Notes: a model not told the origin generated them from the sequence alone. A stretch of DNA of 64,000 bases from an uncultured virus (IMG/VR IMGVR_UViG_3300036715_002448) (IMGVR_UViG_3300036715_002448:1-64000); one strand, 5' to 3'; positions 13,960 to 49,478 are shown, counted from the stretch's first letter. Translations and numbers: made by a program.

Positions 13960-15180
13960 CTATTTTTTATAAGCAACCATACCTCTTATCTGATTTAAAG
14001 CAGCAAATACACCAGTGTATTTATATAAAGTTCCTTTGTATAAAAATGTTATACCTTCTGATGGTATAATTGATTCAATTCCACCTACTGCAGTAATTCT
14101 AGAAAGTTCATGTTCTAATTTAGCAACATCTTCTTCTGATCCCGTTGTTCTGATTGTTTTTATGGCATTGTCGATTTCTTTTCTCATTGATTCAGATGCA
14201 GCAGTTGGATTTGCTACAAGAGCAGAAGATATATTTCTCATCAATTCCGTTCCTATTTCAAGAAATATGTTTTCTAATGGGGCAAACACTTCGCGTTTTA
14301 ACTTTTTGGCATCTTTCTTTTCAAGATTTATGTACCATTCAGCATCATTACCTAAGTCTTTTTTAATTTGTGGTATTGAATATGATTTATCAATATCCGC
14401 AATTCTTCTTGCTAATCCATCTAATGCAATTTCAGGTATTTGTATTTTGTCTTTTTCTGCTTGTTTCTTTATAATGTACTTACCCATTCCTATTGCATAA
14501 TCTAAAACAGAAGAATTTTCAGAACAATTTGAGTATTCCATTACTTCTTGAAGTTTCTTTTTATAATAAGACTCTCTTAATGCTGCATTTGGAAATGGTT
14601 TAATTGCAATATCTTCAGGACCTCTAACAAAAAATGTTTTTTGTGATTCTAAATTAGCATCTTTTAATAATTTTCCAATTTCACGACCAGCGGCTTTATC
14701 TTCTCCTTGTGGATTTCCATCCATATCATAAGAAACCACTCCATGAAAAACTAATAAGTTTTGTCCATAGGGTACTGTATTTTGTGTAATAGGTGTTATA
14801 ATTTCTACCGATGCAAATTTCTTACCATTATCAAATAACTTTTCTTTTTCTTTATCTGGCAAAGCTCCAATTGAAGATGTTAAGTCTTCCATTGCAGTTG
14901 TATATGCTATTTCAATATCTCCTCTTCCCGCAAACATATCAGCAATTCCTTTATAATCTAATGCATTTTCACCAGCGTTTTTAAGATGTGATTTGTTTCT
15001 TGCAGCTATAATTTTTCCATTTTTCCAAGAGATCATTATATTTTGACCATCCGTATTATGAACTAATATATTATTAGCAAAATACCTAGAAAAATTATCA
15101 ACCGTTAAGTCGTAACGACATTGATTTTTTTTAATATATTTAATTGACTTGATTTTAGATGTATCGTAAGAGTTCATCAT
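13960..15180 (-). CDS. Split intein IntC (42 aa) + C-extein of KxDG ligase-like nucleotidyltransferase
   Basis: YDLTVDNFSRYFANNILVHN|TDGQN (blocks F/G, Thr+1); later SEGITF and YKYT resemble ligase motifs IV/V. Confidence 0.8.
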   Translation of the reverse strand: MMNSYDTSKIKSIKYIKKNQCRYDLTVDNFSRYFANNILVHNTDGQNIMISWKNGKIIAARNKSHLKNAGENALDYKGIADMFAGRGDIEIAYTTAMEDLTSSIGALPDKEKEKLFDNGKKFASVEIITPITQNTVPYGQNLLVFHGVVSYDMDGNPQGEDKAAGREIGKLLKDANLESQKTFFVRGPEDIAIKPFPNAALRESYYKKKLQEVMEYSNCSENSSVLDYAIGMGKYIIKKQAEKDKIQIPEIALDGLARRIADIDKSYSIPQIKKDLGNDAEWYINLEKKDAKKLKREVFAPLENIFLEIGTELMRNISSALVANPTAASESMRKEIDNAIKTIRTTGSEEDVAKLEHELSRITAVGGIESIIPSEGITFLYKGTLYKYTGVFAALNQIRGMVAYKK

Positions 15181-15244
15181 TTATTATTTTTTTCATTTCA
15201 CTTTCCCAAATAACAAAGTATTTAAAATCGTGTATTTCTGCTAA
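15155..15244 (-). pseudogene. C-terminal remnant of deleted Vsr-like homing endonuclease
   Basis: LAEIHDFKYFVIWESEMKKIINDELLRYI* matches LAEERGFRVLVIWDTE (38102 ORF) and FANSKGFEVLEVWEND (47627 ORF). Confidence 0.75.
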
Positions 15245-15772
15245 TTATTTTTTTATAATCAATTCCATTCCTTCTTTTAAATTTTTAGCAACTATATCAC
15301 CTAGTCCTTTAACATATACTCTATGATTAGGTGTTACTCTTATTACATTTCCATCTTCTGTTTCTATTTCCAACCAATCTTCTGAATTATCATTGTTACT
15401 CCAATTTAATATATCAGCATATTCTACAGTATCAGACAATTCGTTAAAACTTAAAATTTTATCAAGTATTTTATTATCAACTACTTCTTTAATAGTAGTA
15501 AGGCCATTTTCTTTTAGCATAACAATAGAATCGCCTTCTATACATTTTGTTTGAACAAAATTATCGGGGGTAAATCCACCGTTAACTGTTAAACTTAAAA
15601 GTTCAAATAAATCCAAAAATGACAAATTCATATCATCAAAAGGATGTTGTAAATGACCATATGCCCCTCCACAAAAAATAGGGTCATAACTTGCATACAT
15701 AACATCATTACTTTCTGAATCAAAAATAGATATAAATTGATTGTATTTTAAAAAATTATGTGAGTTTTTCAT
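15245..15772 (-). CDS. N-extein (76 aa) of ligase-like protein + split intein IntN (99 aa)
   Basis: GGAYGHLQHPFD...VQTK|CIEGDSIV; block B VTPNHRVY; ends KNLKEGMELIIKK. Confidence 0.8.
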   Translation of the reverse strand: MKNSHNFLKYNQFISIFDSESNDVMYASYDPIFCGGAYGHLQHPFDDMNLSFLDLFELLSLTVNGGFTPDNFVQTKCIEGDSIVMLKENGLTTIKEVVDNKILDKILSFNELSDTVEYADILNWSNNDNSEDWLEIETEDGNVIRVTPNHRVYVKGLGDIVAKNLKEGMELIIKK

Positions 15773-15904
15773 TATACTTATATTGTTTCTATTGGATTTT
15801 TATTACACGTTCTAAATCCTATATAAAATTCTCTAGTAATTTTATGAGTCAATTTATAAACATAAAATACTCAATATTTTGTTTATTAAATATATATTTA
15901 ATCT

Positions 15905-15918
15905 TTTATTTATATATC
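15905..15918 (-). promoter_or_regulatory. Putative late promoter at the head of the leader-tagged array
   Basis: GATATATAAATAAA. Confidence 0.65.
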
Positions 15919-15931
15919 TTCTATAAAAAGA

Positions 15932-15963
15932 AAAAGCCAATAACTTTAGCATTATTGGCTTTT
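15932..15963. terminator. Intrinsic terminator hairpin
   Basis: AAAAGCCAATAA / TTATTGGCTTTT inverted repeat downstream of the 15983 gene. Confidence 0.7.
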
Positions 15964-15982
15964 CGAAAAGTGCAAACTGAAA

Positions 15983-16204
15983 TTAATCAGTTGGTCCTTT
16001 TGGTGTTAGTTTTTGTTCTGGTTCTTCCCCAGATTGAACAGCTTCTGCAGGTGCATTTGCTTTATTCAATTCTTCAACGAAAAGAACTGCATCATAAATC
16101 AAAGCAGAATCTTTTAAAGAATAAACTCCTTTAGATTGAGCCATTTCTGCAGCTTGGATAAGTACTCCAATTGCTTGACCTAGGTTTGAAATTTTTTGTT
16201 CCAT
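15983..16204 (-). CDS. Small helical protein, paralog of 19010-19201
   Basis: NLGQAIGVLIQAAEMAQSKGVYSLKD. Confidence 0.7.
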   Translation of the reverse strand: MEQKISNLGQAIGVLIQAAEMAQSKGVYSLKDSALIYDAVLFVEELNKANAPAEAVQSGEEPEQKLTPKGPTD

Positions 16205-16213
16205 GTTTGTTTT

Positions 16214-17116: not shown

Positions 17117-17313
17117 TTTACTTCTTCAAAAATAGATTCTTTGGTAATATTAATTTTAACTTGATTTTGCCCAGTTAAGTCTTTTAACAAAATATAAACA
17201 ATATCATCTCTATCCGCATCTACATAAACTTCCCATCCAAAATCCGTAATTTTTCTTTCATTTACCCAAGATTCTACTTTAATGTTAGGTTGTTTTTTAT
17301 AGTAAATTTGCAT
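17113..17313 (-). CDS. Hypothetical protein
   Basis: Short ORF coupled to its neighbours. Confidence 0.55.
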   Translation of the reverse strand: MQIYYKKQPNIKVESWVNERKITDFGWEVYVDADRDDIVYILLKDLTGQNQVKINITKESIFEEVK

Positions 17314-17315
17314 AT

Positions 17316-19201: not shown

Positions 19202-19224
19202 TTTGTATTTGTTTAATTTTTAAA

Positions 19225-21235: not shown

Positions 21236-21279
21236 AATTCACTTCCCTTTCCGTGAGTATTTTTAAAAAAAATTTAAAA

Positions 21280-21329: not shown

Positions 21330-22739
21330 TTAGACAATAATTAAGTTACGTGAAACTTTAATTGTTGCTGATGTAGCAGAACCCATAGTTGCAATTAATC
21401 TTGCATTACCAGAAGTAATATCACTCGTAAACGTTACCAATTGTCCGGCTGTTTCTAACACTCCATATTCAGACATCATAGTGGTTGTTCCATTATGTAT
21501 TAATGTTATTTCCGAAATTTGATAATTACTTCCTTGGGTTACTTGAATTAAATACTTACCTGATCTGTAAGTAGCAATTGGAAATGTATCAATAACTGTT
21601 GCAGATGTAGTAGAAAGTGTACTATTATTAGAACCAAATGAATTAATATTTGTTCCAGCGGTAGCTAATGTTAAATTTCCACCAACGGTGATAGAACCTG
21701 TTAAACCAATACCACCTTGAACTTGCAAAGCACCTGTAATTGTACTTGTCGAGTCAGCGTGATTTGTTATTGTAATAGCTGTTGGAGTAGAAGAACCTCT
21801 TCCGGTAACAGAACTTAAAGTATCAGTTTCTGCTGTTAAATAACCTGTTGTACTTGCTGCAGTAATACGACCTTTTGCATCTACTGTAAATGTATTAAAT
21901 CCTGATCCAGCAGTTACTCCAGTATTAGATAAAACAGTTGAAATTAAAACAGGAGAGGTTCCTGAAAAATTGGTAGCAACAGTAGCCCCAGCCATAACAA
22001 TATCAGGACCTGTAAGCCCGAGTATTACATTACGGGAAAAATACTCAGAAGTTGTTGCATTACCAATAAGAGTACCCAAAATAGTTGTAAAACTAGCAGT
22101 CGTACCGGTAAGGCCTCCCGTTAAAGTACCACCACTAAGTTGTAAATAAGAAGATAAAGATGATGAAGTTGCATAAGAATTACCATCAATAGAACCATCC
22201 GCTTTTAAAAATTGCGAAGAAATACCACTAGGAGTTTTAAATCCAGTAGCTTGTATATTACCTGTAAACGTCGCCCCGGTTGATGTTAATCCTAAACTAA
22301 AAATTGCTAAATCATTAAATGTTTTGCTACCTACAAAAGTTTGTGTTGTTGTATTAACAATACCAGAAACCGTTGCGCTTGCACTAGGAAATGCTGGAAA
22401 TATAACATCACTTCCACCTCCCGCTATTGTTAAAGTAGCAGTAGGACCAGCTATTGTACCATTAGTCCAAGATAAAGAAGTTGGATAGTAGTTAGTATCT
22501 ATAGTTGCTTTAAAAACTAAATTACTATCAGCCGTTCCACCAACAAACCAATACTCTACTAGAGGATTGGTTCCTGATTTAATACCAATTGTTAACCCTT
22601 CATAACGATAAGTTGGTATTAATGCAGTTAATGCTGCTGCTGTAGCTCCAGCTGTTGTACCTGCTAAATATGGACCATACTTGGCATCAGCAGGAGCAGT
22701 GGTTTTCGCTAGAATATTATCCGATAAGTTTATTGCCAT
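21330..22739 (-). CDS. Tail fibre/spike-like structural protein
   Basis: Gly/Thr/Ser-rich; FLKADGSID, FTVDAKGRIT, C-terminal YRSGKYLIQV...EYG domain. Confidence 0.7.
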   Translation of the reverse strand: MAINLSDNILAKTTAPADAKYGPYLAGTTAGATAAALTALIPTYRYEGLTIGIKSGTNPLVEYWFVGGTADSNLVFKATIDTNYYPTSLSWTNGTIAGPTATLTIAGGGSDVIFPAFPSASATVSGIVNTTTQTFVGSKTFNDLAIFSLGLTSTGATFTGNIQATGFKTPSGISSQFLKADGSIDGNSYATSSSLSSYLQLSGGTLTGGLTGTTASFTTILGTLIGNATTSEYFSRNVILGLTGPDIVMAGATVATNFSGTSPVLISTVLSNTGVTAGSGFNTFTVDAKGRITAASTTGYLTAETDTLSSVTGRGSSTPTAITITNHADSTSTITGALQVQGGIGLTGSITVGGNLTLATAGTNINSFGSNNSTLSTTSATVIDTFPIATYRSGKYLIQVTQGSNYQISEITLIHNGTTTMMSEYGVLETAGQLVTFTSDITSGNARLIATMGSATSATIKVSRNLIIV

Positions 22740-26034: not shown

Positions 26035-26058
26035 TATTATATTTTATTTTATATATCT

Positions 26059-35914: not shown

Positions 35915-36836
35915 TGGGAAAGGAAATCGGAACGGTCACCTCCGCTTGACACTTTTCACATTCAACTGTCAGATTTTCTTTTACTCCAACTTTACACATG
36001 TCTATTAATGAATTCATTGTTTGGAATAACTTTAAATCCCATGACATGTATTCTATTTGCATGTTTGATATAATTTTTTCGTTCAATCCTCGCCAATCTT
36101 TTAACATATAAGGCAAAGTTTTCAAAAATGATTTATCAAGTTTTTTACCTTCTTGTTGTTGTTTTTGAATCCATTTAGTAACTTCCATCATAATACCGAC
36201 GGATGGTGGTGCTATTACAATATTACCATTTGATTTTGTTTGAACAATAAATTTCCTAGAATCTTCATCATAGTACTTCATTATTTTATCACTTGGTTCA
36301 TTAGACTCAAATGATGTACTTCTAACTTCTACTTTACCTGAAGTTCCGCATTCATTGCAAGTATAATTTATAACCAAATCATTTTCTCCTTTAAGAAAAG
36401 TAAGCTCACGAACTGCCATTATAACGTAAATTCTATCTTCTTCTTTTAAATCTTTAAAACTACGCATAGATGAACCTTCGCGATATGTTAAACAAGATTT
36501 AAGAACTTGGTTTAATGCTTCGTCAATTGAATAAGGATCATCTTCGCTAATTGTAGAAAATTGTTTAATTTCCGTAACAGTTGCTGCTCTAATTAAAAAT
36601 CTCGCATCTTTACCATAAAAAATTCCTTTAGTCGGAAAGTTTTGTGCGTAAATTTCTATGTAACCTGGTAAAAAACTTGGTTCATCAAGATCTTCTTCAA
36701 ATCCTTTTGCTTTACCTAAAGAACTAGGTTTAGTAATAGGTTGTTCTTCTATTTGTGTACTAGAAATAGAACCATTGTTAAATTCCCTTTGGTCAAGATC
36801 ATCTAAACCTGGATTTTTGTGTGTTTTGTTATTCAT
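35862..36836 (-). CDS. gp26-like baseplate hub/tail assembly chaperone
   Basis: FPTKG..Y, IRAATVTE, DRIYVIMAVRELT, two CxxC; late promoter at 36862-36875. Confidence 0.6.
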   Translation of the reverse strand: MNNKTHKNPGLDDLDQREFNNGSISSTQIEEQPITKPSSLGKAKGFEEDLDEPSFLPGYIEIYAQNFPTKGIFYGKDARFLIRAATVTEIKQFSTISEDDPYSIDEALNQVLKSCLTYREGSSMRSFKDLKEEDRIYVIMAVRELTFLKGENDLVINYTCNECGTSGKVEVRSTSFESNEPSDKIMKYYDEDSRKFIVQTKSNGNIVIAPPSVGIMMEVTKWIQKQQQEGKKLDKSFLKTLPYMLKDWRGLNEKIISNMQIEYMSWDLKLFQTMNSLIDMCKVGVKENLTVECEKCQAEVTVPISFPSGIKSLFVVSDIDSELL

Positions 36837-36876
36837 AAAAAATAAGGTATTTGTTATTTTATTTATTTATATATCA

Positions 36877-38121
36877 TCATTTTGATGACTTTATCTTTTT
36901 CTTCAATTCAATCAAATCGGATTTATACATTTCGGTAGCAGTTAATTTTTGAATTTCTGCAAATTGATTTCTATTTTCTTTTATGTTATTTAATAAATCT
37001 TCATATTTTTCTTTTGTTAAGTTGTAAATTGGTAAATTTAATAAATAGTCAAAAGAATCATTTATTTTTTCAATTTTGGTAAGTTCTAAGTCTGTAATAA
37101 TATCTATTTTAGGCCTATTATTAATCTTAAGTTTTCCGGTTATTACAAGCTTAATAAATTCAGCTTTATTAGTAAGAACCTTGTGGTCATAATCTAATTC
37201 ATCTAATTTATATTGTTTTCTTTTATCATAAAAAGTTAATCTAAAATTGATAAAATAGTTTATTAAAGCAGTAGCTGAGTCAAATTTAATTATCTTGTTG
37301 TGCTCATCTAAACAAGTAATGTTTTCTGTTTCAGTTTCCGTCATTTTCAAAAGCCAATCTAATTGATTTTTTTTCTGACGGGTTTGCAATTCATTACGAT
37401 TGAATTTAATTATATATTCAATCTTAGATTTTTTGCAGTTATTATCATAATATAAAATATGTCCTTTTTCTTCCAAGTTGTTTAAGTGAGCCTCGTATTT
37501 TTGGTATGTTAACGAAGGTGGTAATTCTGTTACTTTAACAGTTGATGTGTTAACAATTTCATATTTTCCTTTTAGTTCAAATGTTGATGTATCATTATCT
37601 ACTTTAATAATTTCACCAGTATATTCGCTCCACCAAGGTAAAGGTTCTTTGAATTTTTTACCATCTAATGCTAACAAACAAGCATCTATAACATCATTAA
37701 CATTTCTATTTAAAATATTTGTAGCAAAACCAACTGCAATACCAGAAGTACCATTTAATAAAATAACTGGAATAATTGGCAAAAACCAATTTGGTTCTAT
37801 TTCCAAGTCTTCTTCTATTTTATATTTCAAAAGATCAAAATCTTTATATAAAGTTCTAAAATTAGCATTTAATTTTACCGAAACATAACGTGCTGCACCT
37901 GGTTCGGTAGACCTTAAAGAACCAAATTGTCCAATACCATCAAATAATGGCATGGAATTTTTAAAAGTTTGCGCCATTCCAATAATAGCTCCATCCATAG
38001 AAGAATTATGCACTACTATGTTAGATTTTCCTATTACAAAATTCTCATATTTAGGGACAGTTATATCATAAAATCGGTTTGGAGACTCTAATATATTTTT
38101 TTTAATGCTTTTTATTTTCAT
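36877..38121 (-). CDS. Split intein IntC (39 aa) + C-extein of topoisomerase II gp52/GyrA-like subunit
   Basis: FYDITVPKYENFVIGKSNIVVHN|SSMDGAI; GQFGS, catalytic AARY, LLNGTSGIAVGFAT. Confidence 0.9.
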   Translation of the reverse strand: MKIKSIKKNILESPNRFYDITVPKYENFVIGKSNIVVHNSSMDGAIIGMAQTFKNSMPLFDGIGQFGSLRSTEPGAARYVSVKLNANFRTLYKDFDLLKYKIEEDLEIEPNWFLPIIPVILLNGTSGIAVGFATNILNRNVNDVIDACLLALDGKKFKEPLPWWSEYTGEIIKVDNDTSTFELKGKYEIVNTSTVKVTELPPSLTYQKYEAHLNNLEEKGHILYYDNNCKKSKIEYIIKFNRNELQTRQKKNQLDWLLKMTETETENITCLDEHNKIIKFDSATALINYFINFRLTFYDKRKQYKLDELDYDHKVLTNKAEFIKLVITGKLKINNRPKIDIITDLELTKIEKINDSFDYLLNLPIYNLTKEKYEDLLNNIKENRNQFAEIQKLTATEMYKSDLIELKKKIKSSK

Positions 38122-39094
38122 TTTTTATTAAAGTATTTATAAATTCTTTACATTTTACTAAATTTTCTTCAGGTGTTTCAGTGTCCCAAATAACAAGAAC
38201 TCTAAAACCTCTTTCTTCTGCTAATTCTATTTTATTATTAAAGTACTCATATGTTTTAATATAATTTTCTTTAGTAAAAGGATGCACCCAATTCAATAAG
38301 GAATTATCATTTCTATAGTCAGGATGCCAATTAATGCCATTATATTCTATTATAATTTTTTTACTTAAAATTGTAAAATCATAAAGTCTGAACATGTCAT
38401 TTTTACACAAAAAGTATTCATTTTTATTATTTACAGGACTTGCATAAAACAAATCTTCTTTTATTAAATTTAACTCCGTTGTCAAATAATCAAATAGTTT
38501 AATAAAAATTTTTTCTGCTTCTTTAGAATATCCATTAAATACTACTCTAGGGTCGTACCCATATTTTTCAATACAAGTTAATCTACTTTTTTGATATGCT
38601 TTTTTGTAAAATAAAGGATCCTCTTCTAATCTTTTTTTAAGTGTATTATTTCTTTTTTCTACAACTATAGGACTTTTTATTGCTGCTGTAACTCCTAAAT
38701 GTTCTACTAGTGATTTTTTTATTTTTTCTTTTACATCAGCTCTTTGAAATACGTTTGTTATACCTTCAGTTCTTAATAAATTACGCTCCCATGCTTCTCT
38801 AGATTTTGATTTTTTAGATAAGTTATGAGCCGTTCCACAAGATAATAAATATGATTGTTTTTTTAATTCTTTTGCACATACAATAGAGCATGTTTGTTGT
38901 CCACTTTTATTTTTAAATAAAGTTCCACATATTTTACAAGGTACTATTCTCTTACAAGAAGGGCACAATGTTAGATTTCTATGTAAATCTTTTTCAAAAC
39001 AAGCATTACCTACATTTTTATAAGTATACTCGGTTCCACAATTAGTACATATCCTATTAGATTTTCTTAATATATTTAGTTCTATTGCATTCAT
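38102..39094 (-). mobile_element. Free-standing Vsr-like homing endonuclease within fractured topo II gene
   Basis: CxxC motifs; YDF...IIIEYNGINWH...AEERGFRVLVIWD; own late promoter at 39100-39114. Confidence 0.8.
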
Positions 39095-39160
39095 ATTGTT
39101 TTATTTTATATATCTTTGCAAACTTACCAAATATACCATCACGGCAATAGATATAATAAT

Positions 39161-39703
39161 TTATTTAATATATTTTAAAATATCATCAGATTCCAACAAT
39201 TCATCTGCTCTTTTCCAAATGCCGTTAGTTAGTAAAAAAGGATGATTTGCTGTGCATTTTATTAATTCGCCGCTTTCTAATAGTATTTCATATTCTACAT
39301 CTGTTATTTGTCCTAACCTAGGAAAACATCCTTCTGAAAAAACAAATTTGTTATTTTTTTCGTCAAAAGAAACAACTTTCATTTTTTTATTAGGAAATTT
39401 TTCTACCCAGTCACCTATTAGAATATAAGAACCATCTTCTAATAAAATAGGAGTATCATAAGCAAGACAGCTTCCATGATGGTACATTTGATTTGCTGCA
39501 CACCTACCACTTAATTGAAATACTTTTAGTGGTTTTTCATTTAAGGTTTTCCAAACTCTAATGGATTCGTTTATAATTTTCCTTTGAGTTGGTTTAAAAC
39601 CATCTACAACAGATGGAATTGCTCTATTTTCTACAGTGTATTTACCATATTCAGCATATTCACTGTCTAAATACTCCGTAATAGTTTTTTGTTGAGTGTT
39701 CAT
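39161..39703 (-). CDS. N-extein (78 aa) of topo II gp52/GyrA-like subunit + split intein IntN (102 aa)
   Basis: RAIPSVVDGFKPTQRK...YHHGS|CLAYDTPI; block B CTANHPF; ADELLESDDI. Confidence 0.9.
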   Translation of the reverse strand: MNTQQKTITEYLDSEYAEYGKYTVENRAIPSVVDGFKPTQRKIINESIRVWKTLNEKPLKVFQLSGRCAANQMYHHGSCLAYDTPILLEDGSYILIGDWVEKFPNKKMKVVSFDEKNNKFVFSEGCFPRLGQITDVEYEILLESGELIKCTANHPFLLTNGIWKRADELLESDDILKYIK

Positions 39704-39704
39704 A

Positions 39705-41567
39705 CTAAAAATTAATCAATTTGTCTTTGCGTAAATTTGAATTGTCACCAAACCAAATATCTAATGATTCTGAAGATTGTTTGTCTGCTGTAAGTTTTAA
39801 CAAAAATGGATTTTCAATTATTTCTTCGTACTCTGTATCTTCTAAAGCTGCAAGTCCTTTCTTATATTCTATGCTCCATTTTGTAGTTTGTGTTTTACTT
39901 GCCCATTCTTCGAAATCTTGCATAGTATAAAAATTTAACGAATCTTTTTTGTTTTTTGCTACTACAAGAGGAGTCATAACTTTATAAATCCTACCATCAG
40001 TAAACAATTCCGGCCAAAATTTGTAAAAGAAATTAGTAAGCAAAGAAGCGATAGAAGTGCCATCTGGATCTGCATCTACGTAAAACAAAATCCTACCATA
40101 TCTTAAATTTTCTGCTTTTTCACCAAATTTTAATCCTAAAGCACCCATTAAATTTTTAACTTCTTCATTTTTGATAATGTCGGTTGTTTTCATTTCATTA
40201 ACATTCAAAAATTTACCACGTAATGGGAAAGCACCAAACAAATTAGGTTCCCTACATTTTCTAACAGCCGAAAGAGCTGAATCCCCCTCAAATAAACCTA
40301 AAGAACATTGCTCCCTATGTGTTCTTGCTTTAGCATCTATAAGTTTTAGGATTTTTACATTACTTACATCCTTGTTCAATTTTCTAATTTTTGAATTCAA
40401 GTCTGCTTCTTGTTTTCTTTGAATCCAATCTAAGATAGAAGCAACAACTTCAGATGCAAATATATTTTTAATAAGTTTATCAGAAACCTCATGAGAAGAA
40501 CCAAAGTCTTTAGGTTCGGTAATAAGTTTTTCTTTAGTTTGCGAACTAAATGATGGGTTAATGATTGTACAATTAACAAAAAGCATTATGTGATTTTTTA
40601 TATCACCAGGTTTTATTTCAACTTTGTGTTTTTTCTTTATCAAAAATCGTAATTTTTCTACTATTTGATTAGTTATATGTGAAACATGAGTACCTCCATC
40701 TTTAGTTTCATTAGAATTAACAAATGAAATTGTTTCGTATCCTGCTGCGGAATATCCTACTGCTACTTCCCAATTTTCAGAACGTTCTGTCCAAGTAGTA
40801 ACAGTACTTCCATCCTCTGGATTATTAACATAAAGGTCGGCATATTCTTTAAAGGATTTAAATCTAAACCTTTCATCGTTAAATGTTATTTTCAATTCAA
40901 CATTACATGCAGCTATATCAAGCACTCTTTTCTTTAATAACAAATAATGGTCTTCATCTATTTTAGAAAGACCAAAGTATTTGAAGTCAGGAACATAAGA
41001 TATTTCTGTAAAGTTTTTTGACGACTCTGTAATTTTAACAGCCGACCTATGAGACATGTTATCTGAAAACGTTTGTAAAAATTGTTTTTGGCCATCTGCT
41101 GTTTTAACAATGAATGTTTTAGAAAATATATTTGTTAATGTACTTCCTAATCCATTTGTTCCTGCTACAACTCTATCTTCACTATCGTCAAAATTAGAAC
41201 CAGAACGAAGTTGTGAAAATATTAATTCCGGGATCCATTTTTTGTGTTGGGTATGTTGTATAACAGGAATTCCACCATTATCCTTAACAGTAATGGTGTC
41301 ATCGGTAACAGATACTACAATAGTGTTTAGATTCTTATTTCTTTTTGACTCATCTACTGCATTTGTAAGAATTTCATCAAAAATTTTAAGAAAAGCAGGA
41401 TTATAAGTTACTGATTTTCTTTGAATTTTATTATTTTCATATACAAATTCATCGGATGTTTGTTGTTTTGTAGAGCCTATGTAAGTTGAAGGACGGTGTA
41501 ATACGTGCTCTACGTCGGTTAAAACCTTGTATTTGCTTGATACTTCTTTTGCTACTTCTTTAGACAT
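39705..41567 (-). CDS. Topoisomerase II large subunit (T4 gp39+60 / GyrB-like)
   Basis: EHVLHRPSTYIGS, EILTNAVD, DNGGIP, GTNGLG, EGDSA, PLRGK, DADPDG, YKKGL. Confidence 0.95.
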   Translation of the reverse strand: MSKEVAKEVSSKYKVLTDVEHVLHRPSTYIGSTKQQTSDEFVYENNKIQRKSVTYNPAFLKIFDEILTNAVDESKRNKNLNTIVVSVTDDTITVKDNGGIPVIQHTQHKKWIPELIFSQLRSGSNFDDSEDRVVAGTNGLGSTLTNIFSKTFIVKTADGQKQFLQTFSDNMSHRSAVKITESSKNFTEISYVPDFKYFGLSKIDEDHYLLLKKRVLDIAACNVELKITFNDERFRFKSFKEYADLYVNNPEDGSTVTTWTERSENWEVAVGYSAAGYETISFVNSNETKDGGTHVSHITNQIVEKLRFLIKKKHKVEIKPGDIKNHIMLFVNCTIINPSFSSQTKEKLITEPKDFGSSHEVSDKLIKNIFASEVVASILDWIQRKQEADLNSKIRKLNKDVSNVKILKLIDAKARTHREQCSLGLFEGDSALSAVRKCREPNLFGAFPLRGKFLNVNEMKTTDIIKNEEVKNLMGALGLKFGEKAENLRYGRILFYVDADPDGTSIASLLTNFFYKFWPELFTDGRIYKVMTPLVVAKNKKDSLNFYTMQDFEEWASKTQTTKWSIEYKKGLAALEDTEYEEIIENPFLLKLTADKQSSESLDIWFGDNSNLRKDKLINF

Positions 41568-41589
41568 TTATGCTTTATTTTTCTTAAAG

Positions 41590-41617
41590 ATTATATGAGT
41601 ATTAATTTAAAAAGTTT
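41590..41617 (-). promoter_or_regulatory. AAAC-N16-CATATAAT promoter
   Basis: Exact motif upstream of the topoisomerase operon. Confidence 0.65.
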
Positions 41618-41698
41618 TATAATTGACTTTGAACAAGTTGTATTCATTTTTTATTTTTAGTTTGAATAGTATAAATATAAACAAAAAAATTGACATAA

Positions 41699-41731
41699 AA
41701 AAATCCTGATAGTACTATTATCAGGATTTTT
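41699..41731. terminator. Intrinsic terminator after tail tube gene
   Basis: AAAAATCCTGATA / TATCAGGATTTTT. Confidence 0.7.
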
Positions 41732-41862
41732 CAATATTTAACTTATTTTATAAATTCCGTATTAAGATCAATTTAGGTATGTTTTTAAAAAAATATTTGC
41801 ATTAAAAATTCCAGCAGTTTATACTAGAATCTTTGTATTACATGAAATATTAGTAGGAAATA

Positions 41863-42435
41863 TTAAACTATGTTTTCTTCCCACCAGTCAGAAGAGAATC
41901 CTACTTCAAAATCTTTTATAATTTCTCCACTTTCATAGTCTCCTTTAATTTCAGGAAGTGTTCCTAATGGTATAATAGCATGGAAAGTTCTTTGCCAGAA
42001 AATATCTCCTTTACGATTATAGTTTGTTACAATAATAGCAGCGTCGCCGCTATAATCTTTTTTCAAACCTTGTTCTCCTGTTAAAGGATTGTATGCTAAT
42101 CTCCACCAGTTACGTAAAATTTTGTATACATAAAACTCATTTGCATCATTAAGATTAAGGTTAAAACCAATCTTAATTTCTTTAGTTGTTGTATCTTCAG
42201 GTCCTGATTTAAGATAAGTACGTTTAGCAAATTTATATGCTTGGGTTTCTGTTTCAAGTCCTTTGTCCATATCAAGTCCTTCTATTTTAGTAACGTGCTC
42301 TAAAATAACATCAGATCCAGCTCTAATTGCAGAAGGTAGTATAAGTTTTACTTCGAATAAGTTACCATAAATTGGTTCTTCGTTTTTCATTGAAGCCTTA
42401 CTACTTCTATAGTGAGGTAATCCTGTTTGTGCCAT
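41863..42435 (-). CDS. Tail tube protein (gp19-like)
   Basis: Follows sheath; NLFEV, LRNWW...YNPLTG...KKDY, FSSDWWE; late promoter at 42451-42465. Confidence 0.8.
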   Translation of the reverse strand: MAQTGLPHYRSSKASMKNEEPIYGNLFEVKLILPSAIRAGSDVILEHVTKIEGLDMDKGLETETQAYKFAKRTYLKSGPEDTTTKEIKIGFNLNLNDANEFYVYKILRNWWRLAYNPLTGEQGLKKDYSGDAAIIVTNYNRKGDIFWQRTFHAIIPLGTLPEIKGDYESGEIIKDFEVGFSSDWWEENIV

Positions 42436-42513
42436 ATTTTTATCTATGTTTTTATTTTATATATCAAAACTTTTTTAAATTAGTACCTTCATTTTAGAAG
42501 GTACCAATTTTAT

Positions 42514-45500
42514 TTAGTAAAGGCCTGTGGATATTTGACCTGTTTTAAGAATGGTTGTTCTATGAACTAAAATTCCTAAACCTTGAACTGGTTCAATGTA
42601 TGTGTCAAGTATACCATAGTGAGCTTGAATAATTTCGTTTGTATTATTTGTAGTGTCCATTACATTTGAATAACTATAAACTCCGCCATCAGAAAGTACT
42701 TGTGCCATGAAATTATCCGCAAGTGTTTTAATTTCTAAACGTACTTGGGCGGTATTGTATTCCCAACGATAATTTTTCAATATTCCTTCAATTTGGTCTT
42801 GTATGTAAATAAGTAATTCTCTTACATGTGCTTGAGAAAGAGCTGATTGTACATTTTGTTGACCGGTTTGGTTAGCATTAATTACTAAACCAAATCCTTT
42901 TTTGTTAACTATTGCATTATAACCAAATGGTTCAATATAGTCAAGGTCTTGTTTGTCAAAGTTATATTCAACACCTGCTAATCCATTACCAGAAACAACT
43001 CCTCTACGAGGACCAGCTATAATAGCATATGGATTTCCTTGATTATTTTTTTCAATAAACAAGTTAGAAACATGTGCTGCAGGTGGAATTGAAACATTTG
43101 TTCCAGCTTCTCTAATAATTAAATTAGGACCATACCAAGCCCCATAATTAGAACCTTCATCGATTGTTGGTAAACTAAATACATTAGAAGGATTCAAATC
43201 AAGATTTCCACCTTGTGCAATATAATAAGTGTTAAACAATGAAGTAGAATTTGCTTTGAAAAGAGGATTAACACTTTCTTTAAATTGTTTTACAGATGGC
43301 ATATTTAAAATTGCAAATACTGAGCCGCGATTTTTAGCAAGAGTAGTTAATCTAGATTTTGAACTGCGTTCAATAGTACCTTCGAAACTATCTACAATAT
43401 AACGGAATGATATGATTTCTCTATCAGTTAAAGCTTGTGCAATATTTGTATTGTACATTACATCTAAAATTTCATTTTGACGGTCAAGTGTACCATTTGG
43501 TATTTGAGCATCTCTTAAAGTATAACCATTAAGATTAAAGAATGTATAATTTTGAGCAAAATCTTTAATATCTTTGTATCTTTGAATTTCCCAGTTACTA
43601 TCAACATAAATAGGTTCGTTAGTTGTTACTTTAATAAATCCATAAGTTGGAGATAACGGATTAGTGTCATTAATAACAGAAGTTATTTTTGTCAATCTAG
43701 ATTTTCCATTTATAGGAGAAATACTAGTTGCACCGGTTCCACCGAAATTTACTACAAGATATTGTCCTTTAACAAGACGTCCCGTAAAACCATCTTGGCC
43801 AAAAGGTCCATTAGGAGTATTATCTAACCAAACTATATTTGTTGGATTAGCTGGCGTTAAATTAGAAGATACTTTAAATTTTTCATTTATATCACCTGTT
43901 AAAGTTTTAATCAATACAACACCGCCGTTAAGATTTCCACTTAATGCATTTAAGGTTACATAATTTATTTTTTTATTCAATTTAACATTTGTTAATCCTG
44001 AACCAATAACACCAAATAAATCATTTGTAAATGTTTTAGTAAAAGAAACAATACTTGTTGAGTCACCAGCCGCTCCTGTTACTATTTTATCACCATCTGT
44101 TATTAATCCTGATTGATAGTCAGCAAACAAGTCAGAGTCTGGACCTGCAAAAACATAATTATTTCCAGAAGCACCTATAATCCAATTCATATCTGATATA
44201 ACTTTAAGGCTTCCTGTAGAACCGCTTGAAATAGCATCAATTTTATAAAAACCATCTACTAAAGAATTAACAGGACCAGCAATTCCTGAATTTGCATCAA
44301 GTGCAAGTTTAATTCCTAATAAAACAGTTTGTCCTGTCGCATCATACGTTTTAGTAACAATTTCAGAATAATTAACGGTAGAAGTAACACCTACAGCTAC
44401 AGTTGGTAAATAAGTTTTACCAATTTGTAATGTATTTACCCAATTTTCAAAATCTGAAACAGTAGCAAATGCGCTTACATAACCTGCAGGTTTGTCGGCA
44501 CTAGGTCCATAAACAGTCAAAGTATCATAACAACCCGGAACATATCCATTAGCACTTTGCATAGCTGCTGAAGATCTTAAAAGACCATTAGCAGCAACCC
44601 CGGAAGTACCACTAACGATAAAAGACATTGTGTTATTTGCAGCAGATGAATATTTCATATAACTAATAGTTTCTACAATAGAACCAGAATAAGACAAGAA
44701 ATTAACGGAAGTAGGTTGTTTCGAATTCATAGAATGTCCTACTAAGTCAATTAAGTCCCCGGATAAAAATCTTTGTTTACCTGCAAAAGTTACAGGTTGT
44801 TCATCAAACACCGATTTGTTAATAGAAATAAGTAATCCGGTTTTTGGTGTTTCTAGATTGACAATATCTTCAATAAATAAATTATTACCAACTTTATCAG
44901 AAGTTTCTGGGATTAAGCATCCTGTATAAACTCCTGCTATAGAAACTTGTGGTAAATTTAAGAAAGAAACTAATCCATCTTTTTGATTTCCATAAGCATC
45001 TATATAGATTTTTTTAAGACCATTATTATCAAAATAAGGACCAAAAATAGGGTCAATTGATAAGCTAGTGTAGTTAGAATAGTCACCGTCTAATACAATA
45101 ACATCAATCATATAATCTGATATGTAGTCATTTTCATTTAAGAATACAGGAACCTTTCCATTACCATACCATTCTTTAGCTGTAATATCAAATCCAATTG
45201 CATCAGATTTACGAATAATAACAGAAAGTTGTTTTCTACCGATATTTGCAATCGTAATTAATTTTTGGTTTGCTACACTTTGATAGTCAGAATTAGCTGC
45301 GGTGTCTTGCAAAGCTTCTGCATTTGCATACCAAAATTTATCTTTATTAAAGAATCCAGAAACTGGTGCTAATACTGCAGGTGAATTAGCTTCTGTAGAT
45401 GAACTTGAAATAGATTGGAATTGAGATTTATCAATATTGTCATCTAAGTTAAGTAAATTAAGAGCAATAATAGGGCCTTTTGTTAAACAAGTCAAGGCTG

Positions 45501-45732
45501 TTCTGTGGAAAAATGAACCTTTTCTTTCAAGAGAAGTATCACGATCTCCGTAAACAGAAGTGAAAAAATCTGTATCTGCGCAATATAATGGAGTGTTAAA
45601 AACTCCTTTTTTAGAGAACCCAATTACCAAACGAGTTGTTTGAGAAGGCACACTAATAGTTTGTGATTTGTCGAAAGTAAGACGGTACACACCGCTACTA
45701 ACAAACTGTTTTAATGATGGAGATATTGCCAT
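42514..45732 (-). CDS. Tail sheath protein (gp18-like) with large insertion
   Basis: SSGVY, GFSKKG.FNTP, AGPRRG, HVRELLIYI, WEYNT; late promoter at 45746-45760. Confidence 0.9.
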   Translation of the reverse strand: MAISPSLKQFVSSGVYRLTFDKSQTISVPSQTTRLVIGFSKKGVFNTPLYCADTDFFTSVYGDRDTSLERKGSFFHRTALTCLTKGPIIALNLLNLDDNIDKSQFQSISSSSTEANSPAVLAPVSGFFNKDKFWYANAEALQDTAANSDYQSVANQKLITIANIGRKQLSVIIRKSDAIGFDITAKEWYGNGKVPVFLNENDYISDYMIDVIVLDGDYSNYTSLSIDPIFGPYFDNNGLKKIYIDAYGNQKDGLVSFLNLPQVSIAGVYTGCLIPETSDKVGNNLFIEDIVNLETPKTGLLISINKSVFDEQPVTFAGKQRFLSGDLIDLVGHSMNSKQPTSVNFLSYSGSIVETISYMKYSSAANNTMSFIVSGTSGVAANGLLRSSAAMQSANGYVPGCYDTLTVYGPSADKPAGYVSAFATVSDFENWVNTLQIGKTYLPTVAVGVTSTVNYSEIVTKTYDATGQTVLLGIKLALDANSGIAGPVNSLVDGFYKIDAISSGSTGSLKVISDMNWIIGASGNNYVFAGPDSDLFADYQSGLITDGDKIVTGAAGDSTSIVSFTKTFTNDLFGVIGSGLTNVKLNKKINYVTLNALSGNLNGGVVLIKTLTGDINEKFKVSSNLTPANPTNIVWLDNTPNGPFGQDGFTGRLVKGQYLVVNFGGTGATSISPINGKSRLTKITSVINDTNPLSPTYGFIKVTTNEPIYVDSNWEIQRYKDIKDFAQNYTFFNLNGYTLRDAQIPNGTLDRQNEILDVMYNTNIAQALTDREIISFRYIVDSFEGTIERSSKSRLTTLAKNRGSVFAILNMPSVKQFKESVNPLFKANSTSLFNTYYIAQGGNLDLNPSNVFSLPTIDEGSNYGAWYGPNLIIREAGTNVSIPPAAHVSNLFIEKNNQGNPYAIIAGPRRGVVSGNGLAGVEYNFDKQDLDYIEPFGYNAIVNKKGFGLVINANQTGQQNVQSALSQAHVRELLIYIQDQIEGILKNYRWEYNTAQVRLEIKTLADNFMAQVLSDGGVYSYSNVMDTTNNTNEIIQAHYGILDTYIEPVQGLGILVHRTTILKTGQISTGLY

Positions 45733-45770
45733 ATTTTTATTTAGTTTTATTTTATATATCTTTTTGATTT

Positions 45771-47654
45771 TTAAAAAATGTCATATATGTCTTCTACTTT
45801 TTCTCCATCTTCATAAGTTTCATAAATTTCATCTATTAATTTCTGTTTATCAGGATCTAATAAGTCAAAAAATTCTTCTACAATTTCTTCAAAGTCATTT
45901 GTTTCCAAGATTGCTGCCGCGGTTATAGAACTCATAAAAAGGTCATCATGACCTGCCTGTGCAGAATAGGTTCCATTTGGATTTCTTGAAAACATTTTAG
46001 CCTCATCTACTGTGTTCGTTTCTAATAATTGCATCCTTCCATTACCTATACATTCTCTTAAAAATTCTGAATATAGTATTTTGTTTTCTTTTCCATAACG
46101 AATTCCTATAGATTTATGAATAGAAGTTACTCTATGTTTGAATTTAACAAAAGTTTCTTCATCAAAATCGTTTTTATGTGGATATAAAGTGATAAGATTT
46201 TTAACAAGTTCAGATCCATAAGTGTTATATTCTAACATTATTCGGATATTTTCTTGATTAAAAATATTTACAGATAACTCATAAAGAATTTTTGCATAAT
46301 CTTCACCACTAATTAAATTATTTCTAAAAACTCCAATTTGCTTTAATCCGAAAAATTTAGAAAAATTAGCCGCATTTTTGATATTCAAAATGTCACTATT
46401 TTCTAATGTAACAACTTCGAATATGTTAATAACAGAATAGTCACGTCCAACTCCTTCAGCTAAATCAACTGAAAATACATAAAAATTAGGGGAATTGAAA
46501 AAATCATCTACATCAACATCAGGATCCCACTTTAAATTAGAATAATCTACATATATATCATCTAATGCATCAAATTCTCTAAATACAAAATCTTTTTTAT
46601 TCCTATCTAAACGTAAAATTTGTTCAGCATTAAGCAATAATGAAGATGATGAAAGAAATTGGCAACCATATTGTTTGTTAAATTCTTCTTCTGACCCCAA
46701 ATTGGCTATTTCACGTGCTTTCCAAGCTTCATCTCTACCTGGAACCTGCCACCAATCTACTCTTAACGGTTTATATTCGTTCATTCCGTCCAATGCATCT
46801 TGGAACAAGTCATGAAATAAATCATATCCATTAGGAGTTGATGAAATAATTACCCTTGATACTTTTGAAGAAGAAAGTGTAGGATAAATATTACCATAAA
46901 AAGGCCTTTTAATATTTTCTTGAATATGAGCAAACTCATCCAAGAATAATAAATGAATAGTAAAACTAATACCAGAAGTTTTTGTAGTGTTTTGTGTTAT
47001 AATACGACATTTGTTATCAAATATCATAGTACCTACATCTTTTTTCATTATACCTGGTTTTAAGAAAAATGGAAGGCCTTCAATAATATTTCTAATTTTG
47101 TCCATAATTTCTTTTGTAGTAGCACCCTTATTCGCAATAAGTAGTGCATTTTTTTCAAATTGAAATAATGTAAACCAAATTAAAAAAATAGATGAAGTAA
47201 TTGTATTATGGGAAAGTATATCATTAGTCCAATATCTGTGATCGTCTGAATTAACAGTTAAATCAAACATTGCAACTTTTTTATTGTATTTTTCTAAAGA
47301 AGTAATAGTGGAAATTCCAGATTTTGTTATAATAGTAGACCCTATTTGAAGATCTTTAACAAAAACCTCTTTGTAATTTTTATCAAAAACTATGTGATTA
47401 TCAGCACATTCTAAAAACTTACCACAGGAAGTTTTTAATTTATATATGGTGTATGGTTGTGTTTGATGTATGTTTGTAGCTGGTTGCCATCCTGAGTCAG
47501 TGTCGACAAAATAACCATCTAACTCAACAGTGTTTTGGATTTTTTTAGTTATGTCATCTTCATCTAGTTTAGAATTTCTAAATTCATATTTTTCAATTAA
47601 TTGTATAATTAATAATATAAAAAAAATTAATGGTCTTTTAAAAATTGTAAACAT
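45771..47654 (-). CDS. terL: Long split intein IntC (150 aa) + C-extein of terminase large subunit
   Basis: Block B CADNH and DLTVNSDDHRYWTNDILSHN|TITSS; LFLDEFAHI, SSTPNG, VDLAEGVGRDYS, GHDDL. Confidence 0.9.
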   Translation of the reverse strand: MFTIFKRPLIFFILLIIQLIEKYEFRNSKLDEDDITKKIQNTVELDGYFVDTDSGWQPATNIHQTQPYTIYKLKTSCGKFLECADNHIVFDKNYKEVFVKDLQIGSTIITKSGISTITSLEKYNKKVAMFDLTVNSDDHRYWTNDILSHNTITSSIFLIWFTLFQFEKNALLIANKGATTKEIMDKIRNIIEGLPFFLKPGIMKKDVGTMIFDNKCRIITQNTTKTSGISFTIHLLFLDEFAHIQENIKRPFYGNIYPTLSSSKVSRVIISSTPNGYDLFHDLFQDALDGMNEYKPLRVDWWQVPGRDEAWKAREIANLGSEEEFNKQYGCQFLSSSSLLLNAEQILRLDRNKKDFVFREFDALDDIYVDYSNLKWDPDVDVDDFFNSPNFYVFSVDLAEGVGRDYSVINIFEVVTLENSDILNIKNAANFSKFFGLKQIGVFRNNLISGEDYAKILYELSVNIFNQENIRIMLEYNTYGSELVKNLITLYPHKNDFDEETFVKFKHRVTSIHKSIGIRYGKENKILYSEFLRECIGNGRMQLLETNTVDEAKMFSRNPNGTYSAQAGHDDLFMSSITAAAILETNDFEEIVEEFFDLLDPDKQKLIDEIYETYEDGEKVEDIYDIF

Positions 47655-48847
47655 GTGTTTATTACATTATTTTTGTTTTGTTTTATATCGTTTTCCCAAA
47701 CTTCTAAAACTTCAAATCCTTTAGAATTTGCAAATTCTATTTTTTGTTTATCATAATTCCATTTTTCCTGAGCAGTCATTTTTAAATTTTTATTATAATA
47801 ATCAGCTTTATATTTTATTGGATTGCAGTGCCAATAGTCTCCATTAATTTCTATAATTTTTTTACCAACTTTAAAATCAAACCCTATCCATTTTCCATGT
47901 TCTTCATCAAAAATTTCAAATTCATTTTCATAGCAAATTGCATCAGGATAAATTTTCAAAAGTTCACTAATAACAGTTTTTGACATGTTTGAAATTCTTG
48001 TTGAATTAATCTTTTTAGGTTTTCTAGAAAATTCACCATTTTTGTATTTTTCTTCAATCTTAGCCGACCATTTAGAATTTCTATCATTAAATCTTTTAGT
48101 TCCTTCAATTTCTCCTAGTTTAGCAATACATTTTTCTAAAGTAAATGTTTTTTGTCTTTCTGATATTTTTTGTTTTGCTTCATCTTCCGAAAATCCTTTA
48201 TTTAACCAGTATCTTTTTTGATTAGGATTAACAATATCAAATGTTTTTAAAAAATTATCTCTATCTGTGTCATTTTTATATTTTTTAAATTTTTTTGAAA
48301 ATGGACTTATAGACTGTCTTTGTTCTAAAGTTGTTTTTGATTTATGATTGTTATTCATTTCGCCAGTTCTATTAAATGATAGTCTTTTACTTTCATTTTT
48401 AGATACTATTAAAGAATTTGGATATTTTAATTTATATTTTTCAGTTGTCCAGTTGTCATGTCTTTGTAAATGAGAAAAAATTGATTTTGTAGCAACTCCG
48501 CAAATTTCACATTTAATATAATCATCAGGATATTTAATCAAAAGTTCTTTAGACTTTTCTAATTCTATTAATTTTTTTTTAAGTTCTTTTTCTTTAGTAT
48601 CATTTTTTCTACAATTGGATGAACAATATATTGCGTAACTTTTACCAAAAAAACTAGGTTCATTGTCGCACATTTTACATTTTACAGTAGACGTTAAATT
48701 ATTTTTTACATAGAAATATCTTTTTCTAATACTTGAATTAATAGGTAAAAATGATGTTAAATAGATTAGTTCATTTAACTCATTTTTGGATATTCTTGAA
48801 AATATATTACAAGATTTAGATTTTAAAATTTTTTCTTTTATGTCCAT
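47627..48847 (-). mobile_element. Free-standing Vsr-like homing endonuclease within fractured terL
   Basis: Zn-binding motifs; FDFKVGKKIIEINGDYWH...ANSKGFEVLEVWE; own late promoter at 48866-48879. Confidence 0.8.
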
Positions 48848-48932
48848 TTTGATATAAATTTGTATTTTATTTATATATCTTTATGGATGCAAAGTTTTAT
48901 GTTCTACAAGACAATTTAGTAAAAAAAGTGTA

Positions 48933-49478
48933 TTATTTTTCTAGAATTTCTAGAATTTTATATAATTTAACTTTTATTTTACCTAAAATAGATGGACTAA
49001 TTGCACTATAATAAAAATCACCTATTGTAGTATCTTTAATTTCTCCATTAGGATATTTTATTTTAATTTTGCTATTATAAAAGGTACACTTACCACATTG
49101 ACGCGGGGCCATAAGAATATCCCATCTATTATGTTGAAATGTCCTAAGAATTTCCTCTTGGTAATCACGGAGAGTAATTTGTTGATAACCATCATCAGTC
49201 ATTACTTTACAATATGTATTTGCAAAATATACAATATCACGAGCACAATGCCTAAGTTCATCCAATTCAAATTGGCTATAATTAAATACTAATTGTCCTC
49301 GTCTAAAATTTTGGTCACCTTCATAAAAAGGATTATCTCTAGTGACATATCCTTCTTTCATCGCTAGTACAAGTTTATCAACTTTTTCAGTAGTCCATAC
49401 TAGTTTATCTGCATTATCTAAGTTAATTTCTGTATCATCTTTTATTCCTGTGAATGAAGATGATAGTGGATTTGCCAT
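48933..49478 (-). CDS. terL: N-extein (130 aa) of terminase large subunit + short split intein IntN (51 aa)
   Basis: CARDIVYFANTY, LRDYQ, Walker A PRQCGK|CTFYNSKI...TIGDFY. Confidence 0.88.
   Translation of the reverse strand: MANPLSSSFTGIKDDTEINLDNADKLVWTTEKVDKLVLAMKEGYVTRDNPFYEGDQNFRRGQLVFNYSQFELDELRHCARDIVYFANTYCKVMTDDGYQQITLRDYQEEILRTFQHNRWDILMAPRQCGKCTFYNSKIKIKYPNGEIKDTTIGDFYYSAISPSILGKIKVKLYKILEILEK

Follow-up and report, generated by a model that had tools for sequence, protein, structure and literature searches.

How can a phage make three of its proteins when the gene for each is broken into two open reading frames (ORFs) within an intein-like sequence? The question is raised by IMGVR_UViG_3300036715_002448, a 94,163-bp linear IMG/VR record of an uncultured virus, which CheckV rates as about 30% of a genome; the stretch analysed here (the window) comprises its bases 1-64000. 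The DNA belongs to a large phage with a GC content of about 28% and nearly all genes on the minus strand. A reading made from the sequence alone (the sequence-only reading) had proposed that three genes of the window, those for a ligase-like protein with a KxDG motif, a topoisomerase II (topo II) subunit and the terminase large subunit (TerL), carry naturally split inteins. We recovered all three pairs as separate ORFs, on the minus strand like every part of these pairs placed below, and reproduced all the numbers claimed for them, including the lengths of the N-terminal and C-terminal intein halves (IntN and IntC), which are 99 and 42 amino acids (aa) for the KxDG gene (pair 1), 102 and 39 aa for topo II (pair 2) and 51 and 150 aa for TerL (pair 3). 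The count of three proved too low, as the record holds at least seven split inteins, four of them beyond the window at 77.9-92.2 kb.

We consider it very probable, from the sequences, that intein elements invaded these three genes and are now split inteins whose halves trans-splice to yield full-length enzymes. Each gene would give two polypeptides; the intein halves would dock, rebuild the HINT (Hedgehog/intein) fold and trans-splice, releasing a KxDG enzyme of 440 aa, a topo II subunit of 453 aa and a TerL of 607 aa. These lengths, which we recomputed, agree with those of the sequence-only reading, and we take the last two to be near T4 gp52 and gp17 in size. The chemistry would be that of class 1 inteins, with attack by the first intein residue (Cys1), passage of the N-extein to the +1 Thr or Ser and cyclisation of the terminal Asn.

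The anatomy of the ORFs is that of split inteins. Each half is fused to its extein, a stop codon follows each IntN and an ATG start precedes each IntC. All three inteins possess (i) Cys1, in K/CIEGD, S/CLAYD and K/CTFYN for pairs 1, 2 and 3 respectively (the slash marks a splice junction throughout); (ii) the His of block B, in TPNH, TANH and ADNH, the first two in the IntN and the third in the IntC; and (iii) a C-terminal His-Asn followed by a nucleophile, in VHN/T, VHN/S and SHN/T. The Pfam Hint family matches the pair 1 IntN with 30.9 bits, the sole intein match above its cut-off (29.7 bits), and Intein_splicing matches the four halves of pairs 1 and 2 at the expected ends of the profile (E 3e-6 to 3.3e-4). 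A phmmer search of proteins of known structure linked the IntN of pair 1 to the NrdJ-1 intein (E 9.9e-9), that of pair 2 to DnaE inteins (E 1.1e-5) and the IntC of TerL to both the gp41-1 intein (E 5.4e-4, query residues 47-150 on chain residues 26-128) and the atypically split VidaL intein (6vgv, E 2e-3). The data show the layout of the ORFs, the intein residues, the exact empty sites, the polymorphism of the alleles and the kinship of the endonuclease ORFs; splicing itself, endonuclease activity, the time of expression and orthogonality we infer.

Exact empty sites are, on sequence comparison, the strongest evidence. Uninterrupted homologues join the last residue of the N-extein straight to the first residue of the C-extein, so the agreement with the predicted junctions lies far beyond chance. 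In pair 1, the N ORF (15245-15772, reading ..NFVQTK/CIEGD..) consists of a 76-aa N-extein (15545-15772) that ends in FVQTK and aligns to the N-termini of uninterrupted homologues (..FVQEK/TDGQ), and of the IntN (15248-15544; Intein_splicing E 5.4e-5, below the cut-off), closed by a stop codon at 15245-15247. A spacer of 64 nucleotides (nt; 15181-15244) with no endonuclease ORF separates it from the C ORF (13960-15180, reading ..NNILVHN/TDGQN..), which opens with the IntC (15055-15180; Intein_splicing E 3.3e-4, profile 121-155) and continues as a 364-aa C-extein (13960-15054), assigned from its sequence and the homologue alignment. The search for homologues found 344, of which 120 were listed. 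Of these 120, 94 are uninterrupted (..K/TDGQ..) and 24 are C-halves that open with an IntC of about 40 aa, among them the protein of the window itself; the other two are P0069 (572 aa), in which a contiguous homologous intein occupies this site, and a truncated sequence. In IMG/VR, 72 of 80 loci of the family are uninterrupted, the junction is unreadable in seven, and the remaining locus, L040, repeats the layout of pair 1 with an 84-nt spacer and no endonuclease. A search of IMG/VR with the single KxDG C-half had found no relatives, whereas the alignment query did find them. The insertion lies between the Lys and the Asp-Gly of a motif in which all 29 uninterrupted homologues compared keep K74, D76 and G77, in keeping with the proposal that these inteins sit at functional motifs.

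Pair 2 interrupts a gp52/GyrA-like topo II gene. Its N ORF (39161-39703, reading ..MYHHGS/CLAYD..) encodes a 78-aa N-extein that ends in MYHHGS (39470-39703; DNA_topoisoIV E 3.2e-11, profile 1-56) and the IntN (39164-39469; Intein_splicing E 3e-6), with the stop codon at 39161-39163. The C ORF (36877-38121, reading ..NIVVHN/SSMDG..) encodes the IntC (38005-38121; Intein_splicing E 2e-4, profile 122-155) and a 375-aa C-extein starting SSMDG (36877-38004; DNA_topoisoIV E 6.9e-67, profile 51-429), so that the DNA_topoisoIV domain runs across both halves. The site, YHHG(S)/(S), is presumably the start of the GyrA quinolone-resistance region and would differ from the known GyrA intein site. Twelve of 19 related loci are uninterrupted at the junction. 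Three (L027, L030 and L032) have the IntN-endonuclease-IntC layout of the window, the intein is also present in three topo genes that are more distantly related (L034-L036), and L037 has the halves without a matching extein. The record that contains L027 (G005) also shows a second, contiguous intein match at 21915-22322 in a 753-aa frame, from which we conclude that intein-rich relatives exist beyond the record studied here.

Pair 3 splits TerL at the Walker A motif (GK/T), again as proposed. The N ORF (48933-49478, reading ..PRQCGK/CTFYN..) encodes a 130-aa N-extein that ends in PRQCGK (49089-49478; PHROG terminase large subunit, E 5.8e-20) and the IntN (48936-49088; stop codon 48933-48935), and the C ORF (45771-47654, reading ..DILSHN/TITSS..) encodes the IntC (47205-47654) and a 477-aa C-extein starting TITSS (45771-47204; Terminase_6N E 9.6e-12, above the cut-off, and PHROG terminase). 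Sixteen of 18 TerL relatives in IMG/VR are uninterrupted, and all of these read RQIGK/TITSSI, which is the predicted junction; the other two, L001 and L013, carry the same split intein with both of its tails kept in kind. L001 retains the split and an endonuclease remnant of only 54 aa. In L013 (3081-3530), the IntC ends in SHQ, with a terminal Gln, and the break is filled by a different ORF of 335 aa with GDNRT-type repeats. Megablast comparison with 50,697 phage records returned nothing for the TerL locus.

The TerL break lies near the N-terminus of the intein, the IntN holding the first motif only and the IntC the rest, which places the intein in the atypically split class. Given the alignments of the IntC to gp41-1 and VidaL, it would represent all but the first strands of the fold, which the 51-aa IntN would supply; an extra helix on each half at the break would pair with its counterpart. 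We predicted the complex of N ORF residues 125-181 with C ORF residues 1-156. The halves are predicted to bind, with an ipSAE score of 0.88 compared with 0.00 for the best of three controls, at least 91% contact agreement between runs and a partner pLDDT (predicted local distance difference test) of at least 87; of 78 solved complexes, 51 attained this mark, as did two of 108 mismatched pairs. In the model, the first HINT strands in the IntN (N ORF residues 128-143) pack on the IntC core, which comprises blocks N2-N4, F and G, and the C-terminal helical tail of the IntN (residues 152-180, with contacts every three to four residues) lies against the N-terminal helical head of the IntC (residues 6-24). 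This outcome may reflect likeness to solved split-intein complexes and is not proof.

Metagenome contigs reveal that the insertions are polymorphic. Four DNA runs, and no RNA run among those listed, contain the stretch, X1 possibly being the source sample, and their contigs were compared with the window over 36800-49600, the region of pairs 2 and 3. At TerL, contigs of X1, X2 and X4 pass directly from 47205 to 49090 and so lack 1884 nt, which is the length of the IntN-spacer-endonuclease-IntC element (47205-49088). In X2, a 2725-bp contig represents the form without the element, at a depth of 7.2 compared with 2.2-5.6 over the element, and the ratio is reversed in X1 (about 3 compared with 5-9). 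At topo II, a contig of X1 connects 38003 with 39473 through four other letters, so that on balance 1465 nt are missing, as many as the element (38005-39469) contains; the element-free allele reads HHGS/ASMDG, with Ala at the +1 position occupied by the nucleophile Ser in the interrupted allele. X2 contigs, from another sample and study, span both topo II junctions of the occupied form with 0-1 differences. Joints with only 21 letters on the shorter side, such as 36994 to 38504 and 46964 to 47604, were discounted, as they probably come from repeats or from other organisms. We therefore conclude from the contigs that the breaks are not assembly errors and that occupied and empty alleles coexist.

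It is accordingly extremely improbable that misassembly or sequencing error introduced the breaks into contiguous inteins or ordinary genes, as might be suspected of a single metagenome assembly in which the pair 1 break amounts to a stop codon and 64 nt: 23 other C-half KxDG proteins from other assemblies (59-93% identity) start at the same IntC point, L040 shares the pair 1 layout, the X2 contigs reproduce both the N-extein/IntN/endonuclease and the IntC/C-extein junctions of topo II, and ORFs of 330-406 aa with paralogues fill the breaks of pairs 2 and 3.

The sequence-only reading had pointed to known fractured phage genes with a split intein and an intervening Vsr-like endonuclease. This layout holds for pairs 2 and 3 and fails for pair 1, which is a split intein but falls outside the fractured genes as Dassa 2009 describes them. 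Between the topo II halves lies a 330-aa endonuclease-like ORF (38102-39094; DUF7487, 34.7 bits for a cut-off of 27; PHROG homing endonuclease, E 9.3e-9), and between the TerL halves a 406-aa Vsr-like endonuclease ORF (47627-48847; DUF559, 22.0 bits for a cut-off of 20.6). Their 3' ends overlap the start of the IntC by 20 nt (topo II) and 28 nt (TerL), which suggests coupled translation with the C-half. Together with the ORFs that fill the four breaks beyond the window, they form six mutually paralogous endonuclease ORFs; those of TerL and gp41 are identical at 157 of 265 positions, and the residues D..E.NG..WH are conserved in the three that were aligned. The N-terminal halves are Cys-rich and zinc-finger-like (ROS/MucR-like; Pfam E 2.3e-3, PDB 2jsp E 0.01).

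Each of the two ORFs is preceded by a late-promoter-like GATATATAAA motif, at 39105-39114 for topo II and 48870-48879 for TerL. In the 94-kb record, the coding (minus) strand has 21 copies of the motif and the plus strand none; most precede a start codon by 10-25 nt, and five of the six endonuclease ORFs have one at this distance upstream. Further sites are found at 45751-45760, 42456-42465, 36866-36875 and 26048-26057. The motif resembles the T4 late promoter, TATAAATA, and is likely a late-promoter core. Pairs 2 and 3 would thus represent split inteins with a free-standing Vsr-like homing endonuclease gene at the break, expressed late from its own motif. Most likely, cleavage of empty alleles by the endonuclease, followed by repair, would install the IntN-endonuclease-IntC cassette, with the adjacent Ser+1 codon co-transferred in topo II. 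Pair 1 would be a split intein of this kind whose break no longer contains an endonuclease and, like L001 with its 54-aa remnant, a later stage after endonuclease loss.

The four split inteins beyond the window (77876-92189), each with a paralogous endonuclease ORF in its break, extend this picture. Three are split atypically at a P-loop, as in TerL: a gp46/SbcC-like gene (IntN 28 aa, IntC 123 aa, junction GIGK/S; N ORF 80987-81196, 69 aa), a gp41/DnaB-like helicase (32 and 147 aa, NIGK/S) and a UvsX-like recombinase (26 and 162 aa, GESG/TAKT). The IntC of TerL, gp41, gp46 and UvsX are 25-40% identical, and those of TerL and gp41 agree at 53 of 133 positions, including the final 12 residues. 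The fourth intein lies in a family B DNA polymerase (PolB) gene (89254-92189; intein at 89.3-92.2 kb), with an IntN of 121 aa, an IntC of 45 aa, the junction YGDTD/S and Ser at both the first and the +1 positions; it has no Cys in the IntN and one in the IntC, and its charge is reversed (IntN +6, IntC -15). The PolB N ORF (region 91452-93989) starts only at motif B; the part with the exonuclease and motif A is therefore not directly upstream, where an unassigned ORF of 248 aa is found together with one that resembles a transposase (PHROG transposase, E 1.7e-5). The polymerase may be made in three or more pieces, and the record stops at 94163. No intein match was found in three large relatives with an uninterrupted TerL (160-254 kb, 52-83% complete), which points to the intein load as a trait of this phage's own lineage.

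Several observations weigh against functional split inteins or against parts of the scheme above. Every Intein_splicing match falls under the Pfam gathering score (35.8 bits), neither TerL half matches any Pfam intein model, and block B of the TerL intein has Ala in place of Thr (ADNH). The joint of the empty TerL allele, as aligned, misses the predicted boundary by one base, and with the window's letter at that joint the Walker A codon would be Asn and not Lys; each element-free TerL piece has exactly one differing letter that is not among its interior differences, which would fit a Lys codon at the joint. The empty topo II allele is a single short contig (side 30, depth 4.5) from X1, possibly the source sample. 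A PDB search with the TerL endonuclease ORF, up to E 10, did not return I-Bth0305I, and we infer endonuclease activity from family membership and conserved residues.

The halves might accordingly have ceased to splice, the remnants either docking the gene products non-covalently or marking dead genes; there is precedent in a phage nrdA that is split by a mobile element and, as reported there, assembles without splicing (PMC3045599). The low profile scores and the altered TerL block B would fit such decay, which we nevertheless regard as quite unlikely. Residue 1, the block B His, the His-Asn and the +1 nucleophile are kept in all three inteins and in diverged alleles elsewhere. At topo II the occupied allele has Ser+1, whereas the 12 uninterrupted relatives have Ala (7), Gly (4) or Thr (1) and never Ser, and the element-free allele has Ala, which is what selection for splicing predicts and thus counts against loss of splicing. 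Moreover, a phage cannot do without TerL, and this one occurs in at least four runs. Trans-splicing in all three pairs therefore remains the reading that we prefer.

The sequence-only reading had further argued that three pairs in one cell should be under selection not to cross-splice and so form a natural orthogonal set. We find the orthogonality of the trio in the window plausible from its sequences. We consider it an even question, nonetheless, whether selection had any part in it, as the three may fail to cross simply as old, unrelated lineages, one of them with another topology; the genome's cross-talk problem, if any, would then lie among the four paralogous Walker A inteins of TerL, gp41, gp46 and UvsX. 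Identity within the trio is low (19 of 73 positions between the IntN of pairs 1 and 2, at most 13 of 36 between that of TerL and either), each has a different closest relative among solved inteins (NrdJ-1, DnaE and gp41-1/VidaL), and the TerL IntN, which lacks blocks N2-N4, could not complete a canonical IntC. Pairs 1 and 2, on the other side, share polarity (IntN -9 and -6, IntC +4 and +4) and the sequence KIKSIK at the start of the IntC, so that some pressure keeping them apart is conceivable. For the four paralogues orthogonality is doubtful, in view of the likeness of the TerL and gp41 IntC. The IntN of GOS-TerL and AceL-TerL are described as interchangeable (PMC11766414), and in published splicing matrices cross-talk arises mainly among atypically split inteins (PMC7090010), which makes these paralogues the place where selection against cross-splicing would bite. 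A more speculative scheme, which we advance only tentatively, is that a cassette of Vsr-like endonuclease and atypical intein hopped, within this phage lineage, among the otherwise dissimilar P-loop ATPases TerL, gp41, gp46 and UvsX, with the helix pairs as pair-specific addresses, and that all seven inteins are mutually orthogonal.

The function of the KxDG protein is less clear than those of TerL and topo II. The junction does rebuild motif I of the covalent nucleotidyltransferases (RNA and DNA ligases and capping enzymes), KxDG with its catalytic Lys, as K-T-D-G, the motif alone being weak evidence; the term 'ligase-like' is weakly supported, and ligase function is only a lead. Neither Pfam nor PHROG assigned the protein to a family, Pfam gave none for the 29 homologues either, and a PDB sequence search with the homologue profile returned nothing better than E 1. 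The AlphaFold2 (AF2) model has a pLDDT of 80. Foldseek found nothing in the PDB at E <= 0.001, T4 Rnl2 ranking third and sixth (E 1.8 and 3.6), and weak RNA-ligase matches in BFVD at ranks 7, 11, 12, 14, 25, 32 and 44 (best E 6.3e-3). The closest structural relatives in BFVD are proteins of 825-944 aa named 'cytidyltransferase-like domain-containing', which hints that KxDG and cytidylyltransferase-like activities work together. A tblastn search of phages with the KxDG protein returned three records, one annotated 'cytidylyltransferase like protein'. In the ESM Atlas, DUF6267 is assigned to about one quarter of the members of the nearest clusters; a PF19782 search had no match anywhere, control genomes included, and is hence uninformative, and no mention of DUF6267 was found in the literature searched. 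Elsewhere in the window, a 192-aa ORF (9679-10257) with an H-N-G-H motif resembles a nucleotidyltransferase of the cytidylyltransferase fold.

The KxDG protein and its uninterrupted homologues also begin with a leader, MKNL-x-[ST]-[FY]-[DE]-[EQ]-F-[LV]-NE, that is found at the N-terminus of about one quarter of the ORFs; a loose form of the pattern fits 26 of 102 minus-strand ATG ORFs of at least 70 aa, a few of them doubtful. These ORFs occupy window positions 773-15772, with others scattered up to 76969, and the leader could be a targeting or processing signal. Another ORF, at 62013-63395, contains four tandem copies of the 12-aa unit DEEPKGTTGPNK near its N-terminal third.

The kind of element described here is already known; its density, its paralogy and its live polymorphism are what stand out. 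Work on ocean and lake metagenomes in 2009 already described fractured genes, gp41-1, NrdJ-1, IMPDH-1, terminase and DNA ligase among them, as well as Vsr-like endonucleases and a terminase intein with an atypical split (PMC2677866). In that study, as here, control elements arrive with the endonuclease, and the terminase intein has an unusual split point, with a long IntC that lacks motif N1 only (PMC2677866). The loci reported there were short and mostly truncated metagenome pieces, whereas seven lie on one 94-kb contig here, and the ligase resembled the Felix 01 DNA ligase, whereas our KxDG protein has no Pfam family (PMC2677866). As that paper never uses the word 'topoisomerase', topo II falls outside its eight enzyme types (PMC2677866). 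We found no report of a split intein in a phage topo II, nor of many split inteins in one phage, in the literature searched, on which the supplementary intein lists of Dassa 2009 and Pinto 2020 may bear.

Atypical TerL, VidaL and PolB16 inteins were described later (PMC11766414). AceL-TerL, GOS-TerL and VidaL resemble the TerL intein of the window in being naturally split near the intein N-terminus, in a phage terminase or ATPase, into a short IntN and an IntC with most of the fold (PMC11766414). AceL-TerL has 25+104 aa and Cys+1, and GOS-TerL 37+115 aa with Ser1 and Cys+1, compared with 51+150 aa, Cys1 and Thr+1 here, the additional 60-70 or so residues forming the predicted helix pair at the break; going by these +1 residues as tabulated there, the insertion sites probably differ (PMC11766414). 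In the cultured Pseudomonas jumbo phage MIJ3, PolB carries a split intein and an endonuclease gene, as in our record, and its Ser1, ..EDHSIMV and ..ILVHN/S resemble ..TDDHSIMV.. and ..LLVHN/S here; the MIJ3 genome contains a single element of this sort, paired with an HNH endonuclease, compared with seven inteins and Vsr-like endonucleases in our record (PMC6892783). A C-terminal Vsr-like core in intein- or intron-associated ORFs, as here, is also a feature of the I-Bth0305I/EDxHD homing endonucleases, whereas our ORFs have Cys-rich N-terminal halves in place of the NUMOD layout of that paper (PMC3239194).

Split inteins serve protein ligation, labelling and logic circuits, for which mutually orthogonal ones are scarce; the largest tested orthogonal set that we met in the literature numbers 15 (PMC7090010). 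Candidate pairs from this phage are the topo II intein at a site for which we found no earlier report, the widely distributed endonuclease-free KxDG intein, the TerL intein with its predicted helical clamps and the PolB Ser1/Ser+1 intein beyond the window, cysteine-independent split inteins being wanted as tools. For the phage itself, seven split inteins in one cytoplasm, four of them paralogous and at the same motif, amount to a natural orthogonality experiment. If the tentative scheme of cassette hopping is true, the helix addresses would stop the phage's own ATPases from being cross-spliced into chimeras, and three canonically split inteins, one of them charge-reversed with Ser1/Ser+1, would complete a natural set of seven. 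The coexistence of occupied and empty alleles, finally, offers a population in which the homing of intein and endonuclease could be followed directly.

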